Translations under genes and position numbers: made by a program | Notes under the pieces: model-generated | What the model saw: the letters and a program-made list of their open reading frames with translations, nothing else | The model's database searches: none | Told to the model about the DNA's origin: nothing | In this document: in pieces, positions 16,678-40,789 of the stretch | Position numbering within the stretch: the first letter of the stretch is position 1 | Layout: each line of letters begins with the position of its first letter | NCBI GenBank assembly: GCA_041667545.1 | Contig: JBAYES010000001.1 | Coordinates: 5,928-69,927 of the forward strand | Length of the DNA stretch: 64,000 nucleotides | Direction of reading: 5' to 3' | From: Candidatus Omnitrophota bacterium | GTDB taxonomy: Bacteria > Omnitrophota > Gorgyraeia > Tantalellales > Tantalellaceae

Positions 16678-19404
16678 ATGAAAAGGTTTTACGTTTTAGG
16701 GAAACCGGGAAAATTATGCGCGGTCTTTTTGTGCCTCTGTCTTGTCGCGGGCGGCGCTTTGCCTTCGGAAGCTTTCTGGCCCGGGGCAGATACCGGGTCC
16801 GATCCGGAATTTTCCAGACAACAAAAAAGAAATATGGAGATACAAAAAATATTGGATAAAGCCAGGGACGAGCGGGGAGTGAATAATTACAAAAGAGCGA
16901 GATCTTTCGGGGAAAGAGCTTTGAGGCTTGACCCGGACAACTATGCCGTTAAAGCGTTTTTGGGGCATTTAGACATTGCCGAAGAAAGATGGGAAAAATA
17001 TCAGTCTGACCTGAAAGAGCTTAAGATAAGGCAGAAAGAAGAGGCAAAAGCCCAAAAAGAGGCTGAAAAAGAGCTAAAAAGAGAGGAAGTTTCCCAAAAA
17101 CGAGCTGAAGAGGAAGCGGCTAAATTGGAAGAGCGAAAGGAAGATGTTCCGGTTAAACAAGTTATGGCGGAAGAAAAGCCCGCGGTTGATATGCCTGATG
17201 TAGATAGAGTCTCTGAAGATGCCGAAAGTATTCCGGGAGAAAAGGAGATCTTTCCCAAAAGAGAAGATCCCGAGATGGATCTTTTAGCGAAGTCGGGCCA
17301 TTCCATAGTGGTAGACGGGGATAGAGTGGAATATCTACAGGAAGAAGGACGCATAACGGCGGAAGGCAATGTTTCAATACAGTATGGCGATGTGGTGCTT
17401 AACTGTGACAAGATATCCATAGACACTAATTCGAGAATAGCGCTCTGTGAAGGCAATGTCCGCATAGTGCACCCCAAAGGGGTATTGGAAGGCGATCTCA
17501 TTCGTTATGACCTGGCAAATAAGGAAGGAGAGATAGTCGGGGCGGATCTTAAAGCATTTCCGTGGTTTGCCACAGCGGATGAGACGGGCAAGGTCGGGCC
17601 CAATGAATATGTGCTTAAGAACGGGTACATAACAACATGCGACGAAGATGAACCGCATTATCACCTTAAAGCCCAGGAAATACGTGTTTTCCCGAACGAT
17701 AAGATCATAGCAAAAAATGTTATCTACTACATAGGCAAGATCCCTGTTTTGTGGGTGCCTTATTATTATCAGCCCAACATAGAGTTAAAGACAAAGGTAC
17801 AACTGATCCCGGGCAGTACAAGCGATTGGGGCTATTTTCTTCTCTCCGCATGGCGGTTTCATATAAAGGGGAACACTAAAGTTGATATACTTTCCGATTA
17901 CCGGACCAAAAAAGGTTTCGCTTTCGGCGCCAATCTTTACTATGATCTCGACGATACCGGCATAGAGGGGTTAGGTAAAGGCCTTTTAAGGGGATACTTT
18001 ATAGATCAGAATGGTTTTGGCACGTATGAACCATCTGAATTTAGGGATGAAGGAACGCAGCAGAGATGGAGAAGGCGTATCCAGTGGAAACATCGTTTGA
18101 ATTTCGACGAAGAGACCACTGGTATAGTGGAATTCAATAAACTGAGTGACGAGCATGTTCTCAAAGAATATTTTTACAACGAGTACGAGGAGAATAACCC
18201 CGTTCCCCCCAACTACATATCCATTATAAACACAAAACCGAATTATTCCTTCAGCCTTGAGGCCCACAAAAGGTTCAACGATTTTTATACGGTGACGCAG
18301 CGTCTTCCCGAAGTAAAACTTGATGTTTTCGAGCAGAGGTTGTGGGATACGCCTCTGTACTACGGTTCAACTTCTTCCGCTACCTACTTCGAGAAAGAAT
18401 ACGCTTATCTTTCATCGCCGTCCGAGAAAGTGGGCAGAGCCGATACCTATCAGAAACTTGCCTATGCCACAGGTATAGGCCCTTTGAGCATTGTGCCTTA
18501 CGGTACACTTCAGGGAACGGCATATAGCCGGACAAAAAATCAAAGTCAGGCCGCTGTACGGGGTACCTTCGGCGGGGGGGTAGACACTTTTATCAGGTTT
18601 AGCCGTGTGTTCGACATTAAGACAGATTATCTGGGACTTGATATAAACGAGTTAAGGCATATAGTCGCTCCCAGGGCTCAATATTATTACACTTACAGAC
18701 CCAGCATGAGCAGGGGACATTTTTACCAGATGGACGAAATAGACGCCCTGGAACATCTTAACGGTATAGCGTTCTCATTAGAGAATAAACTGCAGACCAA
18801 GAGAGGGATGCCGGGAGAAATGGCTTCGGTGGATCTTATAAGGAGCATAATACGAACGGATTATTCTTTCAGAGAGAAAGAAGGCGGGCCCCGGTTCAAA
18901 ATGCTTCATTCCGACCTTGAAGTCAGGCCTTATAGCTGGTTGTATTTCGATAATAGGCTTGAGATAGAGACAGAGAATTTTTCCGTAAAGACAAATAGTG
19001 TTGAGGCCGTCCTTCAGCCCTGGTGGAATTTTCAGGCGGCTTTGGGATACCGCTACGAGAAAAGGATGGATGATTCAAGGAATCAGCTGACATTCGATAC
19101 GAATTGGGTTATAAACCCGAAGTGGAGCGTAGGATTATACGAACGGTTCGATCTTGAGAAAAGTGATATTGAAGAACAGCAGCTTACGATCACAAGGGAT
19201 CTTCACTGCTGGGCGGTAGATGTAGTTTACAACGTCAAGGGAAAAGATATCTTTGAAGACGATTTTACATTCTGGTTCGCTTTCAGGCTTAAAGCTTTCC
19301 CGGACCTTCCGATAGGCCTTTCGAGATCATATAACAAAACTCCTCCGGGGGCGTTATCTTCGTATCCCAGGCCCTCATTAACGCCGGAGCCGTATAAGCC
19401 ATAG
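16678..19404 (+). CDS. lptD: LPS-assembly outer-membrane protein LptD/OstA homolog with an unusual charged coiled-coil N-terminal insertion
   Basis: Signal-peptide-like N-terminus, an OstA_N-like beta-jellyroll segment (VVDGDRVEY...GNVSIQYGDVVLNCDKISIDTNS...GNVRI) and a large C-terminal beta-barrel region rich in Y/F/W/G. Start taken at ATG 16678, which follows GGAAGG. Confidence 0.7.
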   Translation: MKRFYVLGKPGKLCAVFLCLCLVAGGALPSEAFWPGADTGSDPEFSRQQKRNMEIQKILDKARDERGVNNYKRARSFGERALRLDPDNYAVKAFLGHLDIAEERWEKYQSDLKELKIRQKEEAKAQKEAEKELKREEVSQKRAEEEAAKLEERKEDVPVKQVMAEEKPAVDMPDVDRVSEDAESIPGEKEIFPKREDPEMDLLAKSGHSIVVDGDRVEYLQEEGRITAEGNVSIQYGDVVLNCDKISIDTNSRIALCEGNVRIVHPKGVLEGDLIRYDLANKEGEIVGADLKAFPWFATADETGKVGPNEYVLKNGYITTCDEDEPHYHLKAQEIRVFPNDKIIAKNVIYYIGKIPVLWVPYYYQPNIELKTKVQLIPGSTSDWGYFLLSAWRFHIKGNTKVDILSDYRTKKGFAFGANLYYDLDDTGIEGLGKGLLRGYFIDQNGFGTYEPSEFRDEGTQQRWRRRIQWKHRLNFDEETTGIVEFNKLSDEHVLKEYFYNEYEENNPVPPNYISIINTKPNYSFSLEAHKRFNDFYTVTQRLPEVKLDVFEQRLWDTPLYYGSTSSATYFEKEYAYLSSPSEKVGRADTYQKLAYATGIGPLSIVPYGTLQGTAYSRTKNQSQAAVRGTFGGGVDTFIRFSRVFDIKTDYLGLDINELRHIVAPRAQYYYTYRPSMSRGHFYQMDEIDALEHLNGIAFSLENKLQTKRGMPGEMASVDLIRSIIRTDYSFREKEGGPRFKMLHSDLEVRPYSWLYFDNRLEIETENFSVKTNSVEAVLQPWWNFQAALGYRYEKRMDDSRNQLTFDTNWVINPKWSVGLYERFDLEKSDIEEQQLTITRDLHCWAVDVVYNVKGKDIFEDDFTFWFAFRLKAFPDLPIGLSRSYNKTPPGALSSYPRPSLTPEPYKP

Positions 19405-19428
19405 TCCTTAGACCATAGTCCATAGTTT
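19398..19428. repeat. CCATAGTCC short direct repeats, first of four occurrences
   Basis: ccatagtccttagaccatagtccatagtttgg. Related copies at 20762-20797, 22392-22418 (inverted) and 24536-24572. Confidence 0.8.
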
Positions 19429-19454: not shown

Positions 19455-20759
19455 ATGAAAATAACTATAGTAGGAAGCGGGTATGTGGGGCTGGTAACAG
19501 GCACATGTTTTTCCGATCTCGGGAATGAGGTTATTTGCGCCGACAGCGACAGCGCGAAGATAGGCCTTTTGAAAAAAGGCGGGGTGCCCATATACGAGCC
19601 CGGGCTTGAAGAACTTATAAAGAAGAACGTTAAAAGCGGCAGATTAAGTTTTACCACCGATATCAAAAAAGCCGTTTCCGGATCGGAAGTGGTTTTTATC
19701 TGTGTGGGGACACCTCCTAAAGATGACGGCAGCGCCGATCTCAGCGGAGTGGAGAAAGTATCCAAGGATATTGCCGAACATTTTGACTCGTACAAACTTA
19801 TTGTGGAAAAAAGCACCGTTCCGGTGGAAACGGGAGAATGGGTGAGGCGCACTATAGCTAAGTTCAATAAGAGCGGCAGTGAGTTTGAGATAGCTTCCAA
19901 CCCCGAGTTTTTAAGGGAAGGCTCGGCTATAAAAGACTTTATGAACCCTGACAGAGTAGTTATAGGCGTGGAATCGGAGAGGGGAGAGAAGATACTTCGC
20001 GATATTTACGAACCCTTGAACACTAAAATAGTGGTTACTAATATCAAAGGCGCAGAGATAATAAAACACGCGGCAAATTCGTTCCTGGCCGTGAAAATAT
20101 CCTTTATAAACGCCTTGAGCAATATATGCGAGAAAACCGGGGCCGATGTAGAGCAGGTGGCCGAGGGCATAGGGCTTGATTCTCGAGTTAACAAGCATTT
20201 TTTAAGAGCGGGCATAGGTTTTGGCGGATCGTGTTTTCCTAAAGATCTTAAAGCTTTCATACATATATGCGAAAAACTGAGCTATGATTTCGGAATGTTG
20301 AAAGAGGTCGAAAAAATCAACGAAAGACAAAAGGAACTTGCCGTTGAAAAGATACGCAAAATGCTGTGGAATATGTCGGGAAAAGTGATAGCGGTATGGG
20401 GACTGGCTTTTAAGCCCGACACCGACGATATTCGGTCCGCCCCGGCCATAGACATAATAAACCGTCTTCTATCGGAAGGCGCCCGCATAAGGGCTTACGA
20501 TCCCGTAGCAATGGATAATTCCAGGAAGCTGTTCGCCGATTCCCCTAACATAGAGTTCTCTCGGGATATCTACGATGCCGCGAGATCAGCGGACTGTATA
20601 GTTCTTATGACCGAATGGAACGATTTCAAGGAAGTAGACTGGAACAGAATAAAGAAAGAAATGGCGCAGACGTTTATACTTGACGGACGCAATATTTACG
20701 ACCCTGAAAAAATGAGGGATCTGGGCTTTACGTACGAGGGAATAGGGCGGGGGGTGTAA
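19455..20759 (+). CDS. ugd: UDP-glucose 6-dehydrogenase
   Basis: N-terminal Rossmann MKITIVGSGYVGL and the catalytic GGSCFPKD motif. The protein is 434 aa. Confidence 0.85.
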   Translation: MKITIVGSGYVGLVTGTCFSDLGNEVICADSDSAKIGLLKKGGVPIYEPGLEELIKKNVKSGRLSFTTDIKKAVSGSEVVFICVGTPPKDDGSADLSGVEKVSKDIAEHFDSYKLIVEKSTVPVETGEWVRRTIAKFNKSGSEFEIASNPEFLREGSAIKDFMNPDRVVIGVESERGEKILRDIYEPLNTKIVVTNIKGAEIIKHAANSFLAVKISFINALSNICEKTGADVEQVAEGIGLDSRVNKHFLRAGIGFGGSCFPKDLKAFIHICEKLSYDFGMLKEVEKINERQKELAVEKIRKMLWNMSGKVIAVWGLAFKPDTDDIRSAPAIDIINRLLSEGARIRAYDPVAMDNSRKLFADSPNIEFSRDIYDAARSADCIVLMTEWNDFKEVDWNRIKKEMAQTFILDGRNIYDPEKMRDLGFTYEGIGRGV

Positions 20760-20761
20760 GT

Positions 20762-20797
20762 CCATAGTCAATAGTCCATGGTCCATGGTCGATAGAA
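20762..20797. repeat. CCATRGTC short repeats, second occurrence
   Basis: tccatagtcaatagtccatggtccatggtcgatag. Confidence 0.8.
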
Positions 20798-20803
20798 GGT
20801 CTT

Positions 20804-20846
20804 GTGCCGGGTTCACAAAAGCAGGTTCCCATTACGAACCTGGCAC
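20804..20846 (+). promoter_or_regulatory. conserved 42-nt upstream element, copy 1 of 3 (GTGCCRGGTTCACAAAAGCRGGTTCCCATTACGAACCTGGCA)
   Basis: Near-identical copies at 24588-24628 and 26017-26058, each 29-77 nt upstream of a start codon. It contains an outer inverted repeat GTGCCRGGTTC/GAACCTGGCAC and an inner one CAGGTTC/GAACCTG. Confidence 0.75.
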
Positions 20847-20874: not shown

Positions 20875-21603
20875 ATGATAGAAGGCGTAAAAGTAAAACA
20901 GCTGAAACTCATCCCGGACGATCGCGGCAGGCTTATGGAAATACTGCGGAAAGACGATGACTTGTTTGCGGAATTCGGACAGGTGTATATGACAACGGCC
21001 TTTCCGGGAGTTGTAAAGGCCTGGCATTTCCACAAAAAGCAAACTGACAATTTTACCTGTATAAGGGGGTGTATGCGTCTCGGTCTGTATGACTCCCGTA
21101 AAACCTCGTCTACATACGGCAAAGTCGAAGAATTCATAATAAGCCTTGATAGCCCGATGCTTGTTCAGATACCACCTGAAGTTTATCACGGGTTCAAGTG
21201 CATAAGCGAGGAAGAAGCTGTAGTAATAAACACGGTAACCGTACCATACGATAAGAACGATCCGGACGAATACAGAGTAGACGCGTTTGAAAATGATATC
21301 CCTTTCGACTGGAACGCCGTCATTGCGAGGCCCGCAGGGCAGAGCAACCCAAAAAACGAGTCGACTGAAACGCCGTCATTGCGAGGCCCGCAGGGCCGAA
21401 GCAACCCAAAAAACGAGTCGACCGAAACGCCGTCATTGCGAGGCCCGCAGGACCGAAGCAACCCAAGGAACGAGTCGACCGAAACGCCGTCATTGCGAGG
21501 CCCGCAGGGCCGAAGCAACCCAAAAAACGAGTCGACCGAAACGCCGTCATTGCGAGGCCCGCAGGGCCGAAGCAACCCAAAAAAACGAGGTAACCTGACA
21601 TGA
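20875..21603 (+). CDS. rfbC: dTDP-4-dehydrorhamnose 3,5-epimerase RmlC with an in-frame tandem-repeat C-terminal extension
   Basis: RmlC cupin core through ...DPDEYRVDAFENDIPFDW. No stop codon follows, and the frame stays open through 5 x 57-bp repeats (NESTETPSLRGPQGRSNPK). It ends at a TGA overlapping the rfbA ATG. Confidence 0.75.
   Translation: MIEGVKVKQLKLIPDDRGRLMEILRKDDDLFAEFGQVYMTTAFPGVVKAWHFHKKQTDNFTCIRGCMRLGLYDSRKTSSTYGKVEEFIISLDSPMLVQIPPEVYHGFKCISEEEAVVINTVTVPYDKNDPDEYRVDAFENDIPFDWNAVIARPAGQSNPKNESTETPSLRGPQGRSNPKNESTETPSLRGPQDRSNPRNESTETPSLRGPQGRSNPKNESTETPSLRGPQGRSNPKKRGNLT
21311..21594 (+). repeat. tandem repeat array A: five copies, unit 57 bp with a 56-bp first copy (GAAACGCCGTCATTGCGAGGCCCGCAGGGCCGAAGCAACCCAAAAAACGAGTCGACC)
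   Basis: Copy starts at 21311, 21367, 21424, 21481 and 21538, identical apart from a few substitutions. The array lies between the rfbC domain end and the rfbA start. Confidence 0.95.
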
Positions 21604-22340: not shown

Positions 22341-22391
22341 TATAACTAGATGCAAGCAACCGGGTGCAAGTTCTACCGGCCACCTACCATG

Positions 22392-22418
22392 GACTAATGA
22401 CTATGGACTACACAACGA
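22392..22418. repeat. CCATRGTC repeat, inverted orientation
   Basis: ccatggactaatgactatggactac, the reverse complement of GTAGTCCATAGTCATTAGTCCATGG. Confidence 0.7.
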
Positions 22419-23436: not shown

Positions 23437-24342
23437 ATGAAAATACTTATAACAGGGTCCGGCGGGATGCTGGGGCGGGAACTTCGCGGCGTTCTTTCAA
23501 AGGGAGAAAATGAAATAGCCGGGTTGGACATTGCTTTGACGGATATGGCGAAGCCCGAACCGGGAGTTTTTTATAATGTTAACATAAACGATGCCGAAGA
23601 GATCAAGAAGGTCTTTGAAAAAGAAAAACCGGATATAGTTATTCATACAGCGGCCTGGACAGATGTGGACGGCTCTGAGAAAGATCCCGAAAAGGCGCGT
23701 AAGATAAATGTCGAGGGGACTGTTAATGTAGCCGAATCGGCTCGGAAACATTCCGCTGACCTCTTATATATCAGTACGGATTTTGTTTTTGACGGCGGGA
23801 AAAACGCTCCGTATACGGAACTTGACGAGTGTGCTCCCCTAAGTGTTTACGCTAAGACGAAATGGGAAGGAGAGAACAAGGTCAGAGGATCTCTGGAAAA
23901 TTATGCCATAGTAAGAACAAGCTGGCTTTTCGGCCCCGGGGGAAAGAACTTCGTTAAAGCCATAGTATCAAGATCTAAAGACCACAAAACGATACAGGTA
24001 GTGAACGATCAGACGGGTTCTCCGACATACACAAAGGATCTGGCCGATAGCGTAAAGAAACTTCTTGAGAAGGGGATAAAAGGCGGGGAAATATACCATG
24101 TATGTAATTCAGGCCAATGTTCCTGGTATGAGTTCGCCCTTAAGATAAAAGATCTTGTGCCCGAGATGAAAGATGTAAATATTGTACCCTTGTCTTCCGT
24201 CGAACTTGGCCGCTCGGCCCCAAGGCCCGCGTATTCCGTAATGAACACAAGCAAGTTCCGGGAACATACTGGCATGAGTCTAAGGAATTGGCAAGAAGCG
24301 CTGGAAGAGTACCTATGCGAAGAGGGAAGGGCAAAGAGGTAA
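23437..24342 (+). CDS. rfbD: dTDP-4-dehydrorhamnose reductase RmlD
   Basis: MKILITGSGGMLG N-terminus and RmlD-like length. The stop TAA is embedded in GGTAAGGGG. Confidence 0.85.
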   Translation: MKILITGSGGMLGRELRGVLSKGENEIAGLDIALTDMAKPEPGVFYNVNINDAEEIKKVFEKEKPDIVIHTAAWTDVDGSEKDPEKARKINVEGTVNVAESARKHSADLLYISTDFVFDGGKNAPYTELDECAPLSVYAKTKWEGENKVRGSLENYAIVRTSWLFGPGGKNFVKAIVSRSKDHKTIQVVNDQTGSPTYTKDLADSVKKLLEKGIKGGEIYHVCNSGQCSWYEFALKIKDLVPEMKDVNIVPLSSVELGRSAPRPAYSVMNTSKFREHTGMSLRNWQEALEEYLCEEGRAKR

Positions 24343-24372
24343 GGGGTAAGGGCGAAGAGGGAAGGGCAGAGA
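24320..24372 (+). repeat. purine-rich GGTAAGGGG/CGAAGAGGG tract overlapping the rfbD stop codon
   Basis: gaagagggaagggcaaagaggtaaggggtaagggcgaagagggaagggcagag. Similar tracts at 2625-2690, 27034-27060, 29953-30062 and 32866-32925. Confidence 0.85.
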
Positions 24373-24465
24373 GCGAAGGGTTATGCGGAATAGCGTTTTT
24401 CACGTCGTTGCGAGGGAGCGAAGGGTTATGCGGAATAGCGTTTTTCACGTCGTTGCGAGGGAGCG
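24373..24465 (+). repeat. tandem repeat array B: two copies of a 45-bp unit ending in CGTCGTTGCGAGGGAG
   Basis: Unit gcgaagggttatgcggaatagcgtttttcacgtcgttgcgagggag starts at 24373 and 24418. It is followed by GCGACCGAAGCAATCTAATAAAATAAAAATAAG. Confidence 0.9.
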
Positions 24466-24503
24466 AAGCGACCGAAGCAATCTAATAAAATAAAAATAAG
24501 AAG
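24447..24503 (+). promoter_or_regulatory. conserved terminal element CGTCGTTGCGAGG...CCGAAGCAATCTAATAAAATAAAAATAAG, copy 1 of 3
   Basis: The CCGAAGCAATYTAATAAAATAAAAATAA tail recurs almost exactly at 30106-30141 and 32957-32992. Confidence 0.7.
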
Positions 24504-24535
24504 TCGGAGAGCAAAGAGGTAAGAGGAAAGGGTAG

Positions 24536-24572
24536 TCCATAGACCATAGTCGATAGTCCATGGTTTGGGAAC
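24536..24572. repeat. CCATRGTC short repeats, fourth occurrence
   Basis: ggtagtccatagaccatagtcgatagtccatggtttgg. Confidence 0.8.
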
Positions 24573-24587
24573 ATGACTCCGGGTCTC

Positions 24588-24628
24588 GTGCCAGGTTCAC
24601 AAAAGCGGGTTCCCATTACGAACCTGGC
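24588..24628 (+). promoter_or_regulatory. conserved 42-nt upstream element, copy 2
   Basis: gtgccaggttcacaaaagcgggttcccattacgaacctggc, about 70 nt upstream of the 24699 start. Confidence 0.75.
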
Positions 24629-24698
24629 GAAGGGCGGAACGCCCCCGCCGTCATCCTGAGGAGCCGAAGGCGACGAAGGATCCCAAAAAAGGAAAACA

Positions 24699-26016: not shown

Positions 26017-26058
26017 GTGCCGGGTTAACAAAAGCAGGTTCTCATTACGAACCTGGCA
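26017..26058 (+). promoter_or_regulatory. conserved 42-nt upstream element, copy 3
   Basis: gtgccgggttaacaaaagcaggttctcattacgaacctggca, starting 5 nt after the upstream stop and about 45 nt before the 26104 start. Confidence 0.75.
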
Positions 26059-26103: not shown

Positions 26104-27036
26104 ATGTCTAAATACCTTGTAACAGGCGGAGCCGGATTTATAGGGTCTAACATTGTAGAAGAACTCGTTTCCCGGGGAGAAATCGTACGCGTTCTGGACA
26201 ATCTTTCAACCGGCTTCGAAGAGCATATCGCTCCTTTCATGGACAAGATAGAGTTCCAAAAAGGCGACATCAGAAAAGAGGAAGATGTGAAGAAGGCTGT
26301 TTCGGGAATGGATTACGTTATTCATCAGGCGGCTTTAAGAAGCGTAGCTAAAAGCGTAGAGGCCCCGGTGCCGACCAATGACGTCAATGTATGGGGAACT
26401 CTTAACATGCTTCTTATCTCCGTAGAAAATAAAATAAAAAGGTTTGTTTACGCTTCTTCGAGTTCGGCTTACGGCGACTGTGATGTTTTTCCCGAGCATG
26501 AGGGGCTTTGTCCCAACCCGATATCTCCATACGCGGTGAGCAAACTTGCCGGAGAGCATTATGCCAGGATGTTTACTCACACAATGGGCCTGGAAACCGT
26601 AAGCCTGCGTTATTTCAACGTATTCGGACCGCGTCAGAATCCGGAATCTAAGTATTCGGCGGTAATTCCGGCATTTATTGACAGGCTTGTAAAGAATGAA
26701 CCGTGCATTATAGACGGAACAGGGGAACAGTCCAGGGATTTTACTTATGTAAAGAACGTCGTCGACGCAAATATAGCTTCATGTCATGCAAAAGGCGTTT
26801 CCGGAATGGTTTTCAACGTAGCGTGCGGAGAAAGTTATTCTGTGAACGAAACGGCAAGATCCATCGCCAAAATTCTGGGTAAGAATATTTCCCCAGTATA
26901 CGGCCCGAAAAGAAAGGGAGATGTACTAAAAACCTATGCCGACATAACGGCGCTGAAAGAGAAACTGGGAGTCACTCCGGAAGTAGGCTTTTACGAAGGC
27001 CTGGAAAAAACAGTTAAGTGGTTCGTAGAGAAGTAA
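26104..27036 (+). CDS. NAD-dependent nucleotide-sugar 4-epimerase (WbpP/TviC-like)
   Basis: YLVTGGAGFIGSN Rossmann motif and catalytic YAVSKLA (YxxxK). Pairs with the upstream TviB-like dehydrogenase. Confidence 0.8.
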   Translation: MSKYLVTGGAGFIGSNIVEELVSRGEIVRVLDNLSTGFEEHIAPFMDKIEFQKGDIRKEEDVKKAVSGMDYVIHQAALRSVAKSVEAPVPTNDVNVWGTLNMLLISVENKIKRFVYASSSSAYGDCDVFPEHEGLCPNPISPYAVSKLAGEHYARMFTHTMGLETVSLRYFNVFGPRQNPESKYSAVIPAFIDRLVKNEPCIIDGTGEQSRDFTYVKNVVDANIASCHAKGVSGMVFNVACGESYSVNETARSIAKILGKNISPVYGPKRKGDVLKTYADITALKEKLGVTPEVGFYEGLEKTVKWFVEK

Positions 27037-27069
27037 GGGTGAGGGCAAAGAGGTAAGGGGCACAAAGCC

Positions 27070-27366
27070 CCGTCATTGCGAGGAATGAACGAAGTGAGTG
27101 ACGAACCAAACGCGTCTTCTCCGTCATTGCGAGGAACGAACGAAGTGAGTGACGAACCAAACGCGTCTTCTCCGTCATTGCGAGGAACGAACGAAGTGAG
27201 TGACGAACCAAACGCGTTTTCTCCGTCATTGCGAGGAACGAACGAAGTGAGTGACGAACCAAACGCGTTTTCTCCGTCATTGCGAGGAACGAACGAAGTG
27301 AGTGACGAATCAAACGCGTTTTCTCCGTCATTGCGAGGAACGAACGAAGTGAGTGACGAAGCAAAC
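27070..27366 (+). repeat. tandem repeat array C: about 5.8 copies of a 51-bp unit CCGTCATTGCGAGGAACGAACGAAGTGAGTGACGAACCAAACGCGTCTTCT
   Basis: Copy starts at 27070, 27121, 27172, 27223, 27274 and 27325. The last copy ends ...GACGAAGCAAACTAAATAAACATG at the carbamoyltransferase start. Confidence 0.95.
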
Positions 27367-29639: not shown

Positions 29640-29760
29640 GCAAAAAAGAGGAGCTCCTCGCTGTCATTCGCTATGAGGTCGCGGGGTTTGTGGAAAGGAT
29701 CCTGTTTCCTTGGTCATTACGAGGAGCCCTGTACCGGAGCGAAGCGACTATTACAATGCG
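29640..29760 (+). repeat. degenerate single copy of the CGTCATTGCGAGG...CGACGAAGCAA element
   Basis: gtcattacgaggagccctgtaccggagcgaagcgactattacaatgcgacgaagcaaacc, preceded by gctgtcattcgctatgagg. Confidence 0.6.
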
Positions 29761-29793
29761 ACGAAGCAAACCCCAAACAAAAGGATTGAACAT

Positions 29794-29952: not shown

Positions 29953-30062
29953 GCAAAGAGGTAAGGGGTAAGAGGCAAGGGGCAAGAGGTAAGGGCAGGG
30001 GGCGAAGGGCGGAGAGCAAAGGGCAAAGAGCGAAGGGCAAAGAGCGAAGGGCGGAGATCGGA
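29953..30062 (+). repeat. purine-rich (GGTAAGGGG/CAAGAGG/CGAAGGG)n tract
   Basis: gtaaggggtaagaggcaaggggcaagaggtaagggcagggggcgaagggcggagagcaaagggcaaagagcgaagggcaaagagcgaagggcggag. It contains four or more GGG/GGGG runs. Confidence 0.85.
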
Positions 30063-30076
30063 AGGATCGCAAAGCC

Positions 30077-30141
30077 CCGTCTTTGCGAGGTCCCCGGAAC
30101 GGGGGCCGAAGCAATCTAATAAAATAAAAATAAAACAAGTC
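30077..30141 (+). promoter_or_regulatory. structured element CCGTCTTTGCGAGG-[CCCCGGAACGGGG hairpin]-CCGAAGCAATCTAATAAAATAAAAATAAAACAAGTC
   Basis: A near-identical element at 32927-32992 has its hairpin changed to CCTCCGGAACGGAGG, which is compensatory covariation. It lies about 25 nt upstream of the UXS start. Confidence 0.7.
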
Positions 30142-31106: not shown

Positions 31107-31115
31107 AATAATGCT

Positions 31116-31367
31116 TCCGTCATTGCGAGGAGTGGACGAAAAGAGTATTCCTCCGTCGTTGCGAGGAGCGAACGAAGAGAGTATTTCTCCGTCGTTGCGA
31201 GGAGCGAACGAAGAGAGTATTCCTCCGTCGTTGCGAGGAGCGAACGAAAAGAGTATTCCTCCGTCGTTGCGAGGAGCGAACGAAAAGAGTATTCCTCCGT
31301 CGTTGCGAGGAGCGAACGAAGAGAGTATTTCTCCGTCGTTGCGAGGAGCGAACGAAGAGAGCGACGA
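31116..31367 (+). repeat. tandem repeat array D: seven copies of a 36-bp unit TCCGTCGTTGCGAGGAGCGAACGAAGAGAGTATTYC
   Basis: Copy starts at 31116, 31152, 31188, 31224, 31260, 31296 and 31332. Ends ...GAGCGACGAAGCAATCTCAAAAAATCAAGGAGCAATATG at the gmd start. Confidence 0.95.
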
Positions 31368-31394
31368 AGCAATCTCAAAAAATCAAGGAGCAAT

Positions 31395-32375
31395 ATGAGC
31401 AACAAAAAAGCGCTGATAACCGGTATAACCGGCCAGGACGGCAGTTATCTTGCCGAATACCTGCTTAAAAAAGGATACGAGGTGTATGGTGTTGTGAGAC
31501 GGGTTGCCTTGGAAGACCAAAAGCACAGAATGTGGCGCATAAACCACATAGCCGACAAAATTAAATTTCACTCCGGGTCGCTTGAAAGTTATCCCAGTCT
31601 TTTTAAGATAGTGGAGAAGATCAGGCCTGACGAATGTTATCATCTTGCGGCTCAGAGTTTTGTGACCTATTCTTTTGAAGACGAATTCTCGACCCTTAAT
31701 GCCAATATTAACGGAACGCATTACATTTTATCGGCTCTTCAGAGCGTGGTTCCCGACTGCCGGTTCTATTTCGCCGCGTCCAGCGAGATGTTCGGGCGTG
31801 TAGAAGAAGTTCCTCAAACTGAGATAACAAAGTTCCACCCCAGGTCAGCATATGGCATTTCAAAAGTAGCGGGTTTTGATCTTACAAGGAATTACCGTGA
31901 GGCGTACAATATGTACGCGGTAAGCGGCATACTTTTTAACCATGAATCGCCGCGCAGAGGATATGAATTCGTTACGAGGAAGATAACTTCTCTTGCGGCG
32001 CAAATTAAACTTGGCAAAGCCCAAAAGCTGTATCTTGGCAATCTTGATGCCAAAAGAGACTGGGGCCATGCGCGGGAGTATGTCAAAGCCATGCATGCTA
32101 TGCTTCAGCAGGATGAACCGTATGACTATGTGATAGGTACGGGAGAAACCCACTCGGTGCGTGAATTTGCCGAAATAGCCTTTAAATGCCTTGATCTGGA
32201 TTACAAGAAATATGTGGAAATCGACCAGAATTTTTTCCGTCCCGCAGAAGTAGATCTTCTCATCGCCGATCCGTCAAAAGCAAAAAAAGAACTGGGCTGG
32301 GAATACGATCTCTCGTTCGAAGATCTTGTCTCGGAGATGGTAAGATCAGATTACGACCATCTGTCAAAGAGCTAA
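31395..32375 (+). CDS. gmd: GDP-mannose 4,6-dehydratase
   Basis: KALITGITGQDGSYLAEYLL start, YxxxK catalytic motif and 326-aa length fit Gmd. Confidence 0.9.
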   Translation: MSNKKALITGITGQDGSYLAEYLLKKGYEVYGVVRRVALEDQKHRMWRINHIADKIKFHSGSLESYPSLFKIVEKIRPDECYHLAAQSFVTYSFEDEFSTLNANINGTHYILSALQSVVPDCRFYFAASSEMFGRVEEVPQTEITKFHPRSAYGISKVAGFDLTRNYREAYNMYAVSGILFNHESPRRGYEFVTRKITSLAAQIKLGKAQKLYLGNLDAKRDWGHAREYVKAMHAMLQQDEPYDYVIGTGETHSVREFAEIAFKCLDLDYKKYVEIDQNFFRPAEVDLLIADPSKAKKELGWEYDLSFEDLVSEMVRSDYDHLSKS

Positions 32376-32398
32376 GGGCTAAGGGCGAAGAGCAATCT

Positions 32399-32445
32399 CC
32401 CCGTCATTGCGAGGAGTCCACGGCTACTAAAACTTAGAACGACGA
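32399..32445 (+). repeat. single copy of the CGTCATTGCGAGG...CGACGAAGCAAACC element
   Basis: ccccgtcattgcgaggagtccacggctactaaaacttagaacgacgaagcaaacc. Confidence 0.7.
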
Positions 32446-32523
32446 AGCAAACCAAATAATATGAAAATGACAAGTCGCGCAAAGGACAAAGTGGAAAGGC
32501 AGGATAAGGACGATAGTGAATAA

Positions 32524-32871
32524 ATGGGTGCAAAGATGAGTGTATTCCACAAGGAACTTGGAAGTGGACGCTGGAATGAGATGCCATTCTGCGAGCAAAT
32601 GGCGAATATCGGAAGCGAAGTAAGCAGGGCATTCAGATGGCGTGAAAAAGACAGAAAGGATCTTTCACTTAACTCGGCAAACAGGGCTTTGGAGCTTTTG
32701 GACATGACCACAAGACCCATAAAAAAATACGCCCGGTTAAAGGAACTATCGCGAGTAAGAGAAGTTTTGGTTGATTTTTTCTATGGTAGCAACGAATACG
32801 GTTCTTCTGGGATATCATTGCTAAAATATTTCGACCATTTTAACTATCTGGCGAGAATAGGTAAGGGGTAG
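32524..32871 (+). CDS. small hypothetical protein
   Basis: 115-aa ORF bracketed by repeat elements, with a weak all-alpha resemblance to MazG-like NTP pyrophosphohydrolases. No confident family assignment. Confidence 0.4.
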   Translation: MGAKMSVFHKELGSGRWNEMPFCEQMANIGSEVSRAFRWREKDRKDLSLNSANRALELLDMTTRPIKKYARLKELSRVREVLVDFFYGSNEYGSSGISLLKYFDHFNYLARIGKG

Positions 32872-32925
32872 GGGCGAAGGGGCAAGAGGTAAGGGGTAAG
32901 AGCAAAGGGCGGAAGGGTCACAAAA
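32866..32925 (+). repeat. purine-rich GGTAAGGGG tract
   Basis: ggtaaggggtaggggcgaaggggcaagaggtaaggggtaagagcaaagggcggaaggg. Confidence 0.85.
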
Positions 32926-32926
32926 T

Positions 32927-33031
32927 CTCGTCGTTGCGAGGCCTCCGGAACGGAGGCCGAAGCAATTTAATAAAATAAAAATAAAACAAGTCCCGGGATT
33001 GCTTCGGTCGCTCCGCTTCCTCGCAACGACG
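32927..33031 (+). promoter_or_regulatory. inverted pair of CGTCGTTGCGAGG...CCGAAGCAAT elements flanking a conserved A-rich core
   Basis: Forward copy at 32927-32992 with a CCTCCGGAACGGAGG hairpin. An inverted partial copy ATTGCTTCGGTCGCTCCGCTTCCTCGCAACGACGG at 32997-33031 gives a roughly 100-nt imperfect palindrome. Confidence 0.7.
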
Positions 33032-33091
33032 GGAAACGACCGAAGAATCTAAGGACTATTTAGCAATTTAACAACAAGGAGATACAGTACA

Positions 33092-34216: not shown

Positions 34217-34301
34217 TTTTCCGAAAAAGCCTTTGACAAAGAAAAATTATAGTGTATAATCTATAATACATATAACTTATAAGCTATATGGCAAGGCTAA
34301 T

Positions 34302-35012
34302 ATGGACAAAAACATTAGAGAAGCTCAAAAAGAAGTTTTAAAGGTTTTTTCGCGGCATGCCCAAAATTTCGCGCTTTCCGGCGGAACGGCCTTAGAACTT
34401 TACTATCTGCATCACAGATTTTCAATTGATCTGGATTTTTTTTCTCCCGTATATGATGTGAAAGAGATAGACCTTCTGATCAAAGAGTTAAAGAAAGACC
34501 TAAAGACCGATATAAAATTGGAAAATGAACTCATGTCCGGGAATAAAGCAAAAGTTCGTTTTTATACGATGCCCATAAGTGATTCAGAAAAGACGTTGAA
34601 AATAGATTTTGTTGAAGACGTGATAGTAGATAAACCTGAAATTGAGAATTTTGAAGGTGTCAGAGTTTATGGGGCGCATAATATATATTTGCAAAAGGCC
34701 TCGGCCATTACGGGAACTCAGATAAACACAGACCACATAGGACGGGAGATCATGCAGGGCAGGGTGGAAGCCAGGGACGCATTCGATCTATATATGCTTT
34801 CAAAAAAAATAAGTCCGCTTCACGTGTTTTTAAAAAGTTCTCCGGGGTATATACAACGGGGGATAATTCAATGGTATAGAAGGTTCTCAAGAACAGATCT
34901 TAAGCTATCACTGCTTGACCTGGATATCTATTCAAGAACATTCGACTCAAAGGAAATGATAATTCATCTGGAAGAAGAAATAGAAAAATTCATGCAGGAA
35001 ACCATAATATGA
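34302..35012 (+). CDS. AbiEii-like nucleotidyltransferase (DUF1814 family)
   Basis: GGTALELYYLHHRFSIDLDFF matches the AbiEii N-terminal NTase motif. Confidence 0.55.
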   Translation: MDKNIREAQKEVLKVFSRHAQNFALSGGTALELYYLHHRFSIDLDFFSPVYDVKEIDLLIKELKKDLKTDIKLENELMSGNKAKVRFYTMPISDSEKTLKIDFVEDVIVDKPEIENFEGVRVYGAHNIYLQKASAITGTQINTDHIGREIMQGRVEARDAFDLYMLSKKISPLHVFLKSSPGYIQRGIIQWYRRFSRTDLKLSLLDLDIYSRTFDSKEMIIHLEEEIEKFMQETII

Positions 35013-39670: not shown

Positions 39671-40789
39671 ATGAAATTCATACCGGTAAACGAACCCCTG
39701 CTGGGCAAAAAAGAATTAAAATATGTGACAGATTGTATAAAAACAGGCTGGATATCGTCTAAAGGCGAATACATAAATAAATTTGAAAACAAGTTTGCTG
39801 AAGTTTGCGGGGTAAAGTACGGCATATCTACCACAAACGGGACTACAGCTCTTCATCTTGCCCTTGCTTCCCTGGGAATAGGCAAAGGTGATGAAGTTAT
39901 AATGCCAACTTTTACCATGATAGCCACGGCTTATGCGGTTCTCTATACGGGGGCTAAACCTGTTTTTGTCGACTCCGAAGAGAGGACATGGAACATGGAC
40001 ACATCCAAAGTCGAAAAGCTCATAAATAAAAATACAAAGGCTATACTTCCCGTGCATATTTACGGCCATTCGGTGGATATGGATCCTTTGCGGAAGCTTG
40101 CCCGAAAATATGATCTTTACCTGGTTGAAGATGCTGCAGAAGCGCATGGCGCCGAGTATAGGGGGGAGAGATGCGGATCTTTGGGGGACATAGGATGTTT
40201 TAGTTTCTATGGCAACAAGATCATAACTACCGGTGAAGGAGGGATGATAGTTACCAATAATAGAAAAATAACCGAAAAAGCCAGACTGTTGAAGGATCTG
40301 GCGCATTCTCCGGGGAAAAGGTTTCTTCATTCTGAGCTGGCATATAACTATCGTATGACCAATATGCAGGCGGCGGTCGGACTGGCTCAAGTCGAGCAGA
40401 TAAACAAATTCATTAGAAAAAAAAGAAAAATAGCTCAGACCTATAAGGAAAATCTAAAAGGTGTAAAAGGTTTGAGGCTTCCTGTCGAAGAGAAATGGGT
40501 AAAAAATGTTTATTGGATGTACGCGATCCTGATCGAAAAAGGGTTCGGAATTACGAGAGATAAGCTTATGACCGAACTTGCTGAAGAAGGAGTAGGCACA
40601 AGGGCGTTTTTCGTTCCTATGCATAGGCAGCCTGTGATCGTGAATAACGGGATATGCGATAAAAAAACTTCATATCCTGTCGCCGACGATATAGCGGAAA
40701 GAGGATTGTACCTTCCCACGGGCATGACACTCAGGGAAAAAGATATCGTAACGGTATGTAACAAGTTGAGGGAAATCCAACAAAAGTAG
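39671..40789 (+). CDS. DegT/DnrJ/EryC1-family sugar aminotransferase
   Basis: FIPVNEPLLGKKE...GWISSKG N-terminus and the CFSFYGNKIITTGEGG lysine region. Confidence 0.85.
   Translation: MKFIPVNEPLLGKKELKYVTDCIKTGWISSKGEYINKFENKFAEVCGVKYGISTTNGTTALHLALASLGIGKGDEVIMPTFTMIATAYAVLYTGAKPVFVDSEERTWNMDTSKVEKLINKNTKAILPVHIYGHSVDMDPLRKLARKYDLYLVEDAAEAHGAEYRGERCGSLGDIGCFSFYGNKIITTGEGGMIVTNNRKITEKARLLKDLAHSPGKRFLHSELAYNYRMTNMQAAVGLAQVEQINKFIRKKRKIAQTYKENLKGVKGLRLPVEEKWVKNVYWMYAILIEKGFGITRDKLMTELAEEGVGTRAFFVPMHRQPVIVNNGICDKKTSYPVADDIAERGLYLPTGMTLREKDIVTVCNKLREIQQK

Follow-up and report, generated by a model that had tools for sequence, protein, structure and literature searches.

The repetitive extragenic palindromes (REPs) of the CGTC superfamily have been surveyed by Di Nocera, De Gregorio and Rocco (BMC Genomics 2013, PMC3733652). 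These repeats are composed of an unpaired CGTC tag (variants TGTC and CCTC), a stem starting with A-T pairs at positions 1 and 2, and a 3-nt tail close to CCA; in the families CGTC-1 to CGTC-4 the stems are continuous over 8–9 bp and closed by loops of 4–5 nt, and the Neisseria repeat dRS3 as well as the Rickettsia repeats RPE-4 and RPE-6 are included among CGTC families. Head-to-head (HH) dimers with the tags outside predominate, heterodimers are frequent and the spacers of 20–100 nt often have complementary ends, while tail-to-tail (TT) dimers and clusters are rare and head-to-tail arrangements negligible. The repeats sit between unidirectional and convergent open reading frames (ORFs), near the stop codon of the upstream gene, some are intragenic, and no transposase is associated with them. 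The survey covers 5 phyla, and its authors considered that classes with bulges may have escaped detection. Here a 64,000-nt stretch of DNA (the window; all positions refer to it) from contig JBAYES010000001.1 of the Candidatus Omnitrophota metagenome-assembled genome (MAG) GCA_041667545.1 was analysed with respect to a palindrome at 32927–33031, which lies 55 nt past the stop codon of a gene for a 115-amino-acid (aa) protein and 57 nt ahead of the start codon of a DegT-family aminotransferase gene. This feature very probably consists of two units from the CGTC-tagged REP superfamily, arranged as an HH heterodimer in a spacer of a co-directional sugar-nucleotide operon. The NCBI proteins of the MAG include DnaK (MFA6635489) and, as MFA6635511–13, GMD, the 115-aa protein and DegT.

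The first-pass annotation had described an imperfect palindrome of about 100 nt, formed by an inverted pair of a recurring element, and this description is borne out by the sequence and a repeat search. Outer arms of 16 nt (32926–32941 and 33019–33034, 94 % complementary) and inner arms of 10 nt (32957–32966 and 32998–33007, 100 % complementary) around an A-rich core were returned by an inverted-repeat search. The reverse copy, formerly taken as partial, is on the − strand a complete unit, CGTC-GTTGC-GA-GGAAGCGGAGCGACC-GAA-GCAAT, with its tag at 33031–33028 and with a different apical hairpin; since the two units differ in this hairpin, the pair is a heterodimer. The first stem position is a G.T wobble in both units (GTTGC...GCAAT). 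The parts of the pair and its immediate surroundings are as follows:

32859–32920, + strand: purine-rich heptamer array (GGTAAGG / GCAAAGR), beginning at the 115-aa gene's stop codon and running into the REP pair (Tandem Repeats Finder, TRF, rows 32859–32909, period 7/14)
32929–32966, + strand: forward REP unit, read from the sequence, with the tag CGTC at 32929–32932
32933–32937 and 32962–32966, + strand: outer stem of the forward unit, GTTGC / GCAAT
32938–32939 and 32959–32961, + strand: internal loop of the forward unit, GA / GAA
32940–32958, + strand: apical hairpin of the forward unit, GGCCTCCG-GAA-CGGAGGCC
32967–32997, no strand: A-rich spacer TTAATAAAATAAAAATAAAACAAGTCCCGGG, read from the sequence
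32998–33031, − strand: reverse REP unit, complete, of the tandem-mismatch type with a GGA loop and the tail CCC
33038–33049, + strand: remnant 3' box GACCGAAGAATC, a direct repeat of 32955–32966 (GGCCGAAGCAAT)

An identical pair is present in an independent assembly of the same organism (European Nucleotide Archive ERZ27247361, contig k141_2522559, here L001), whose identity to the window is 99.98 %, with array copy number as the only difference; the pair is therefore not an assembly artefact.

Folded against dinucleotide shuffles, the 121-nt stretch at this locus reached −53.8 kcal/mol as + strand RNA (z −6.37, 0 of 200 shuffles as good), −50.6 kcal/mol as − strand RNA (z −5.23) and −30.8 kcal/mol as + strand DNA (z −5.66). 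The proposed capacity to form a long hairpin or cruciform is thus supported, as folding surpasses the shuffled controls for RNA of both strands and for DNA. Alone, the forward unit folds as (((((..((((((((...))))))))...))))) with −22.3 kcal/mol (z −3.85), the shape of the family. High stability on both strands and a position between two genes could also mark an intrinsic, possibly bidirectional terminator or an attenuator of read-through from the 115-aa gene into the aminotransferase gene, as had been suggested initially; a T-rich run is located 13 nt past the reverse unit on the − strand, and transcription termination is among the roles hypothesised for REPs (background cited in PMC3733652). 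The sequence, however, lends no support to a bidirectional terminator or attenuator: the bases following the + strand hairpin, GGGAAACGACC, contain no U-tract, a scan with terminator and promoter consensus sequences detected no terminator-like site at 32927–33040 on either strand, there are no − strand genes that would need termination, and identical units are found directly ahead of start codons elsewhere in the operon. Moreover, the structure is absent from the orthologous junction of five relatives, in one of which the genes overlap by 4 nt, and this absence also rules out a conserved control element of the aminotransferase. The pair is accordingly rather improbable as a terminator or attenuator and probably not an intrinsic terminator, while partial termination or mRNA stabilisation may be exerted by a structure of this sequence.

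The layout of the unit was read from every copy within the window together with 342 others found elsewhere. A CGTC (or TGTC) tag, unpaired and outside every predicted helix, is followed by a 5-bp outer stem ATTGC...GCAAT with a short tail behind it, and the stem is split by a conserved internal loop with GA as its 5' and GAA as its 3' side. Position 1 of the stem is A-U in 27/36 and 17/19 sequences, position 2 is U-A in 35/36 and 19/19. The apical hairpin is variable (2–9 bp), closed by G-C in 207 of 226 variants and furnished with a tandem G.A pair in 77 of the 226; triloops are the commonest apical loops (GAA, GCA, GGA, AAA and GTA, mostly GAA, GCA and GTA). This variable part is self-complementary far in excess of chance (3.15 nested pairs vs 0.55 in shuffles), and the apical helix covaries in two gap-free alignments (0.152 vs 0.065 and 0.356 vs 0.080), with single pairs occurring as GC, CG, AU and UA; none of 500 shuffles reached the observed values, and slid controls ranged from 0.004 to 0.121. 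Being nearly invariant within the subfamily, the outer stem yields no covariation signal there; it does covary in a sibling unit at 24649–24683, where ATCC(T)/GGAT encloses the same GA...GAA interior. Purine-purine mismatches (G.A, A.A) are confined to the CGTC strand, which suggests that the selected structure belongs to one strand in its single-stranded form. A K-turn or loop-E motif was considered for the GA/GAA loop and rejected by eye, the strand registers misfitting the canonical K-turn.

For comparison with the superfamily, at least 240 loci were collected from viral contigs (pattern TTGCGAGG-N(6-36)-CGAAGCAA) and from species-representative genomes (GTCATTGCGAGG-N(6-36)-CGAAGCAATC); all family-wide counts in this text are among the matches listed. 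Among 90 dimers, GTC is preceded by C in 64 and by T in 16; 52 of the 90 carry a CCA tail (CCAG, CCAT, CCAA), and most others have CTC or CCC. Close pairs comprise 85 HH, 8 TT and 11 tandem arrangements (85/104 HH). Nearly all dimers (89/90) are heterodimers, the variable parts of their arms typically being 6 nt apart in length. Their spacers have a median of 26 nt (interquartile range 23–31), a range that includes the 31 nt of the window's pair, and complementary ends (3.9 nested pairs vs 0.6 in shuffles). The genes on either side of a dimer are unidirectional in 33 cases, convergent in 18 and divergent in 9; divergent spacers (9/60) are depleted, as for REPs, and dimers are positioned at a median of 22 nt past the upstream stop codon. 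Enrichment of neighbouring genes was not observed: the 148 ORFs examined yielded 131 Pfam families, none of which matches more than 3 ORFs, and no transposase family is among the 25 neighbour Pfam families listed. Likewise, neither the window region nor its 10-kb extension harbours a transposase. The tag, the AT-starting family stem, HH dimers, heterodimers, gene context, missing target-site duplications (see below) and missing transposase link, and furthermore the often complementary spacer ends of the family and the occasional read-through into ORFs, are shared with the CGTC REPs described in the survey (PMC3733652).

A size of about 105 nt, inverted ends of about 35 nt, multiple copies and varying presence among relatives would also be expected of a conventional miniature inverted-repeat transposable element (MITE), i.e., a DDE-transposon remnant with the units as terminal inverted repeats and cut-and-paste mobility creating target-site duplications. 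However, 80 of 89 dimers lack such a duplication (no direct repeat of at least 2 nt at the flanks), and the remainder display chance matches of 2–3 nt. Single units and arrays of 5' halves are common, the heterodimeric constitution means that the arms are not copies of each other, covariation is seen separately within the apical hairpin of each arm, and a transposase is missing nearby. A MITE origin is thus quite improbable.

The split of the stem by the GA/GAA loop places the unit within the superfamily, yet in none of the families CGTC-1 to CGTC-4 as characterized in the survey. These differ further in that tandem G.A pairs are frequent in the unit studied here and its apical hairpin is free in length and sequence. 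Rhodopseudomonas palustris CGTC-3, rebuilt from the supplementary peptide VIAGLDPAIH of the survey (PMC3733652), reads CGTC-ATTGCCGGG-CTTGA-CCCGGCAAT-CCA and agrees with the unit in tag, outer 5 bp (ATTGC/GCAAT) and tail, but is devoid of the GA/GAA loop. Judged by the text descriptions of the published families, the interrupted-stem unit probably constitutes an undescribed CGTC REP subfamily. In its organisation the pair resembles a REPIN (REP doublet forming a hairpin) or a bacterial interspersed mosaic element (BIME). Similarities with the GTAG REPs, BIMEs and REPINs of E. coli and Pseudomonas, which are connected with flanked, single-copy genes of RAYT (TnpA-REP) transposases, comprise a small, imperfectly palindromic unit whose 5' tetranucleotide stays unpaired, inverted doublets foldable into one long hairpin, tandem amplification and strain-level presence or absence. 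As in BIMEs, mosaics with short motifs are formed, here with a heptamer array, a GGAAG(T/G)ATCGCAA..CCC leader and an A-rich box. In contrast, the tag is CGTC rather than GT[AG]G, REPIN sequences are lineage-specific whereas the interrupted-stem CGTC core is nearly identical across phyla, and no RAYT or Y1 transposase gene was found in about 74 kb of the contig or, among the neighbour families listed, beside units elsewhere.

Relatives of the locus were retrieved via homologues of the 115-aa protein, which represents a conserved family without Pfam assignment (1276 matches, largely from Omnitrophota). Contigs with close homologues retain the gene order GMD – (DUF5674) – small gene – DegT. The junctions between the small gene and DegT, with the identity of the small protein, are as follows:

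L338 (small protein 82 % identical): junction of −4 nt, genes overlapping
L332–L334 (78 %): junction of 51 nt, no REP
L336 and L337 (76 %): junction of 76 nt, unrelated hairpin
L325 (89 %, genes with about 83 % nucleotide identity): junction of 140 nt, one forward unit with the same apical hairpin
the window: junction of 220 nt, HH dimer
L326–L331 (80 %): junction of 264 nt, different insert, no REP

The orthologous forward unit is thus found in the nearest relative, L325, without the reverse unit. In a BLAST comparison, positions 1150–1166 of L325 align with window positions 32957–32973 as well as with 33040–33056, so that directly repeated copies of the REP 3' box, CCGAAG(C)AAT(T/C)TAA, flank the additional ~83 nt of the window, which consist of the A-rich box, the reverse unit and GGAAACGA. 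Either these ~83 nt were inserted in the lineage of the window, or they were deleted between the repeats in L325. The breakpoints lie in the REP 3' box, and the suggested recombination hotspot holds in the limited sense that a structural breakpoint maps exactly onto the element. Turnover extends to other sites: a unit with the same apical hairpin resides in a non-orthologous spacer of L335 (GMD to DUF5674), the single unit at 32402 has a counterpart in L332/L333 and is absent from L324/L325, and the site of the 36-nt array (see below) is an unrelated 287-nt spacer in L324 and 1 nt in L327 and L329. Presence or absence and non-orthologous copies among relatives show that gain, loss and copying of units proceed within short times, and, given the variability of the junction, the pair is not a conserved control element or regulator. 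We read the pair as a recently formed REP dimer in an Omnitrophota operon.

Two further features of these relatives were recorded. A DUF5674 gene is positioned between GMD and the small gene in L324, L325, L327, L332 and L335; the window has no DUF5674 gene there and contains a single REP unit in a 148-nt spacer instead (32376–32523). The 264-nt spacer of L326–L331 is identical in all six contigs (five JGI samples and one NCBI assembly). It has purine heptamers on one side and CCCTTAGCCCTTACCCC, the reverse complement of these heptamers, on the opposite side; enclosed between them are about 190 nt of unrelated sequence, which may be a different inserted element.

Within the window the 5' box GTCGTTGCGAGG (up to 2 mismatches) has 28 matches vs 3.1 expected, and 10 structure-matching units were counted vs 0.16 in shuffles. 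Ten independent sites fall within 12 kb, none in the other ~52 kb of the window, and a 10-kb extension of the contig added no more units. Besides the pair, the following were identified:

21305–21589, + strand: 57-nt x 5 tandem array, each repeat holding the complete unit and a 26-nt linker
24371–24481, + strand: 45-nt x 2.2 array ending in a complete unit (24448–24481), then the A-rich box
24649–24683, + strand: sibling unit CGTC-ATCCT-GA-GGAGCCGAAGGCGAC-GAA-GGAT-CC
27070–27366, + strand: tandem array of the unit, 51 nt x 5.8 (TRF)
29712–29771, + strand: single degenerate REP unit with a long insert
30078–30115, + strand: single REP unit CGTC-TTTGC-GA-GGTCCCCGGAACGGGGGCC-GAA-GCAAT, then the A-rich box
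31116–31373, + strand: tandem array of the 5' half of the unit, 36 nt x 6.8, ending in one complete unit
32402–32452, + strand: single REP unit upstream of the 115-aa gene

The array at 31116–31373 occupies the spacer between the epimerase gene and GMD. In L001 this 36-nt array is shorter by 144 nt (four units) and the 45-nt array by 45 nt (one unit), which reflects either real copy-number variation or collapse by the k=141 assembler. The 57-nt array encodes the entire C-terminal 92 aa of an RmlC-like ORF (20875–21603) with the Pfam domain dTDP_sugar_isom within residues 2–150, and seems to have replaced the original stop codon of this gene. The periods of all arrays are multiples of 3, i.e., 57 (21305–21589), 45 (24371–24468), 51 (27070–27366) and 36 (31116–31361); the 57-, 51- and 36-nt arrays are open in a frame reading ...PSLRG..., and the array ORF 31111–31398 ends in an ATGA overlap with GMD, as ORF 20875–21603 does with an rmlA-like gene. 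CRISPR and type III toxin-antitoxin (ToxI-like) arrays were considered for the 36–57 nt arrays and rejected: spacers are missing, the genes behind the arrays serve sugar biosynthesis, and what is repeated is the REP. Mycobacterial interspersed repetitive units (MIRUs) are reportedly intergenic operon repeats that are oriented with the genes, vary in copy number and contain small ORFs abutting or overlapping the flanking stop and start codons. They would resemble the tandem arrays of the window, not the dimer, but are unrelated in sequence and are not known to be hairpin REPs.

Conserved outer boxes, a variable paired centre and one functional strand distinguished by unpaired bases are features that the unit has in common with integron attC sites, the recombination sites with core sequences RYYYAAC ... 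GTTRRRY. Site-specific recombination at such sites could mark boundaries of gene cassettes; most units of the window point the same way as the genes, the units at 32402 and 32929 lie on either side of the 115-aa gene, and the same cluster comprises an AbiEii/HTH (helix-turn-helix) module. The attC core sites are, however, absent from single units and dimer alike, single units are much shorter (30–60 nt), and no integrase-type or other recombinase gene is among the genes called in 21–74 kb. Furthermore, dimers are symmetric and the family displays no consistent orientation, with 15 sense vs 14 antisense singletons and the longer arm placed 15 vs 17. An attC-like nature of the unit is very unlikely on these grounds. 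The lack of a strand or arm polarity across the family equally led us to reject a purely RNA-based function as implied by the sense orientation in the window. All genes of the window are encoded on the + strand, which also has the positive GC skew, so that transcription and replication are inseparable here as causes of the orientation.

The exact unit core is distributed over at least 17 phyla, in isolates as well as MAGs, including Alpha- and Gammaproteobacteria, Bacteroidota, Chloroflexota, Desulfobacterota, Myxococcota, Patescibacteria, Zixibacteria, Ignavibacteriota, Planctomycetota, Omnitrophota, Latescibacterota, Armatimonadota, Gemmatimonadota, Campylobacterota, Verrucomicrobiota, Bacillota and Binatia. 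It is also located, without annotation, on megaplasmids of Novosphingobium, Methylosinus, Methylocystis, Methylobacterium, Legionella and Calothrix, and on viral contigs. Omnitrophota is a phylum outside the original CGTC REP survey (PMC3733652). A metagenome scan of DegT loci, in which the nearest match (68 % identity) was too distant for an empty-site test, served as background and contained about 3 units in an unbiased 517 kb. These data bear on a gene-specific cis-regulatory RNA (riboswitch, leader or operator) for the aminotransferase, with which a highly structured element in the 5' region of the gene would be compatible. Such an RNA is extremely unlikely: the unit also precedes unrelated genes, it is absent upstream of orthologous DegT genes and scarce in DegT loci at large, and Rfam yielded 0 matches in the window at the gathering score and just chance miRNA-like hairpins (E 0.14–0.28) in the locus region. 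The 16 loci with canonical dimers likewise had 0 Rfam matches except one tRNA. Literature searched with sequence strings of the element matched only primers; one of these, SEG8_cef01_for_150 (GAGATTGCTTCGTCGCTCTG, PMC8066302 Table 5), placed 150 nt upstream of a soil-metagenome resistance gene, sits on a copy of the unit.

Several observations weigh against assigning the pair to the CGTC superfamily as a mobile dimer, or against parts of this assignment. The tails of the pair, TTA in the forward and CCC in the reverse unit, are not CCA, and the ends of its spacer are non-complementary (only 2 nested pairs vs the family mean of 3.9), both of which are atypical. The stem is split into 5 bp, loop and 2–9 bp and is capped by triloops, unlike in CGTC-1 to CGTC-4. 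Sense orientation at 9 of the 10 window sites (two-sided binomial p about 0.02) is atypical of the superfamily, and four of the sites are tandem arrays, called negligible for CGTC repeats; thus tandem arrays and sense-oriented singletons dominate the window in a manner that deviates from the CGTC REPs described in the survey (PMC3733652). The outgroups are without both units, which is compatible with insertion as well as with deletion at the junction. A role at the RNA level is inferred by analogy with E. coli REPs, and a mobilising enzyme for the units is neither known nor found in the loci searched. To our knowledge, CGTC REPs form that half of the REP world for which no mobilising enzyme is known.

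The wider cluster contains additional short repeats. The A-rich box, with the sequence (C/T)TAATAAAATAAAAATAA(A/G)A(C)AAGTC(N)CGG, is seen three times in this genome (24482–24507, 30116–30145 and 32967–32997), each time behind a forward unit; none of the other loci scanned, among them another Omnitrophota MAG (L164), had this box behind its units. A leader GGAAG(T/G)ATCGCAA(C/A)(A/G)CCC stands ahead of units at 30060–30078 of the window, in L325 and in L332/L333; since these sites are non-orthologous and belong to different genomes of the clade, what moves or is duplicated may be a mosaic that extends beyond the REP. Purine heptamer arrays (GGTAAGG, GCAAAGA, GCGAAGG) are located at or just after + strand stop codons, and many of their units resemble Shine-Dalgarno sequences (AAGAGG, AAGGGG). 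They persist in relatives (seen in L324, L325 and L335), even at places where a REP is missing, and L332–L334 have GGTTNAG-type repeats instead. A second heptamer repeat forms short intergenic arrays, and a third family, CAAAAGC(A/G)GGTTC(C/T)CATTACGAACCTGGC, forms a 7-bp hairpin after TGCC(G/A)GGTT(C/A)ACAAAAG and scores as terminator-like on the − strand. Their positions are:

2602–2683, 24319–24380, 24508–24534, 27036–27060, 29953–30053, 32367–32390 and 32859–32920: purine heptamer arrays, after + strand genes
19399–19426, 20759–20795, 22389–22410 (opposite sense), 24533–24561 and 39986–40004: TAGTCCA / CCATAGT arrays
20816–20845, 24600–24628 and 26028–26057: third repeat family, in three spacers of the same cluster

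Two AbiEii toxin genes are present within the polysaccharide cluster; an HTH gene comes after one of them, and a DUF6577 gene stands before the other. Just upstream of the AbiEii-like gene at 34302 lies a promoter that matches the sigma-70 consensus perfectly (34233–34260; TTGACA, 16 nt, TATAAT).

Taken as a REP dimer, the pair may have arisen by the following route. Units would spread or rearrange as strand-specific single-stranded hairpins, consistent with the tolerance of G.A and A.A pairs on the CGTC strand only. The reverse unit and the A-rich box are an addition (or a loss in L325) with breakpoints in the REP 3' box, and the resulting pair would be tolerated, not required, in the operon. 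In E. coli, REPs act as barriers to 3'-exonucleases or as processing sites. By analogy, the transcribed hairpin of ~105 nt, if active at all, probably acts as a decay barrier or processing site on the polycistronic mRNA, and could in this way uncouple the levels of upstream and downstream cistrons.

A broader interpretation may also be considered, although it is unlikely: the unit, CGTC-ATTGC-GA-[any hairpin]-GAA-GCAAT, could be an undescribed pan-bacterial structured module acting as single-stranded DNA or RNA. In at least 17 phyla and on viral contigs, about 20 nucleotides of the unit hardly vary, while its apical hairpin evolves freely. If this applied, one widespread protein (e.g., an HUH/Y1-type nuclease, or a repair or RNA-binding factor) would recognise the tag and the GA/GAA loop, and the pair in the window would represent an insertion targeted into the 3' box of an existing unit. 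The Omnitrophota lineage would have amplified the unit into in-frame arrays (36, 45, 51 and 57 nt), which would be translated or would couple translation between cistrons.

With regard to this operon, the pair is an ordinary repeat of a known superfamily and not a dedicated regulator of the aminotransferase. Genome annotation should mask the palindrome and distrust small ORFs predicted over its relatives. The subfamily combines a near-invariant core in many phyla with strain-level turnover and breakpoints in its own 3' box, and would be a good handle for finding the mobilising enzyme by phylogenetic profiling; the subfamily would also help to test whether REPs located in operons act on mRNA.

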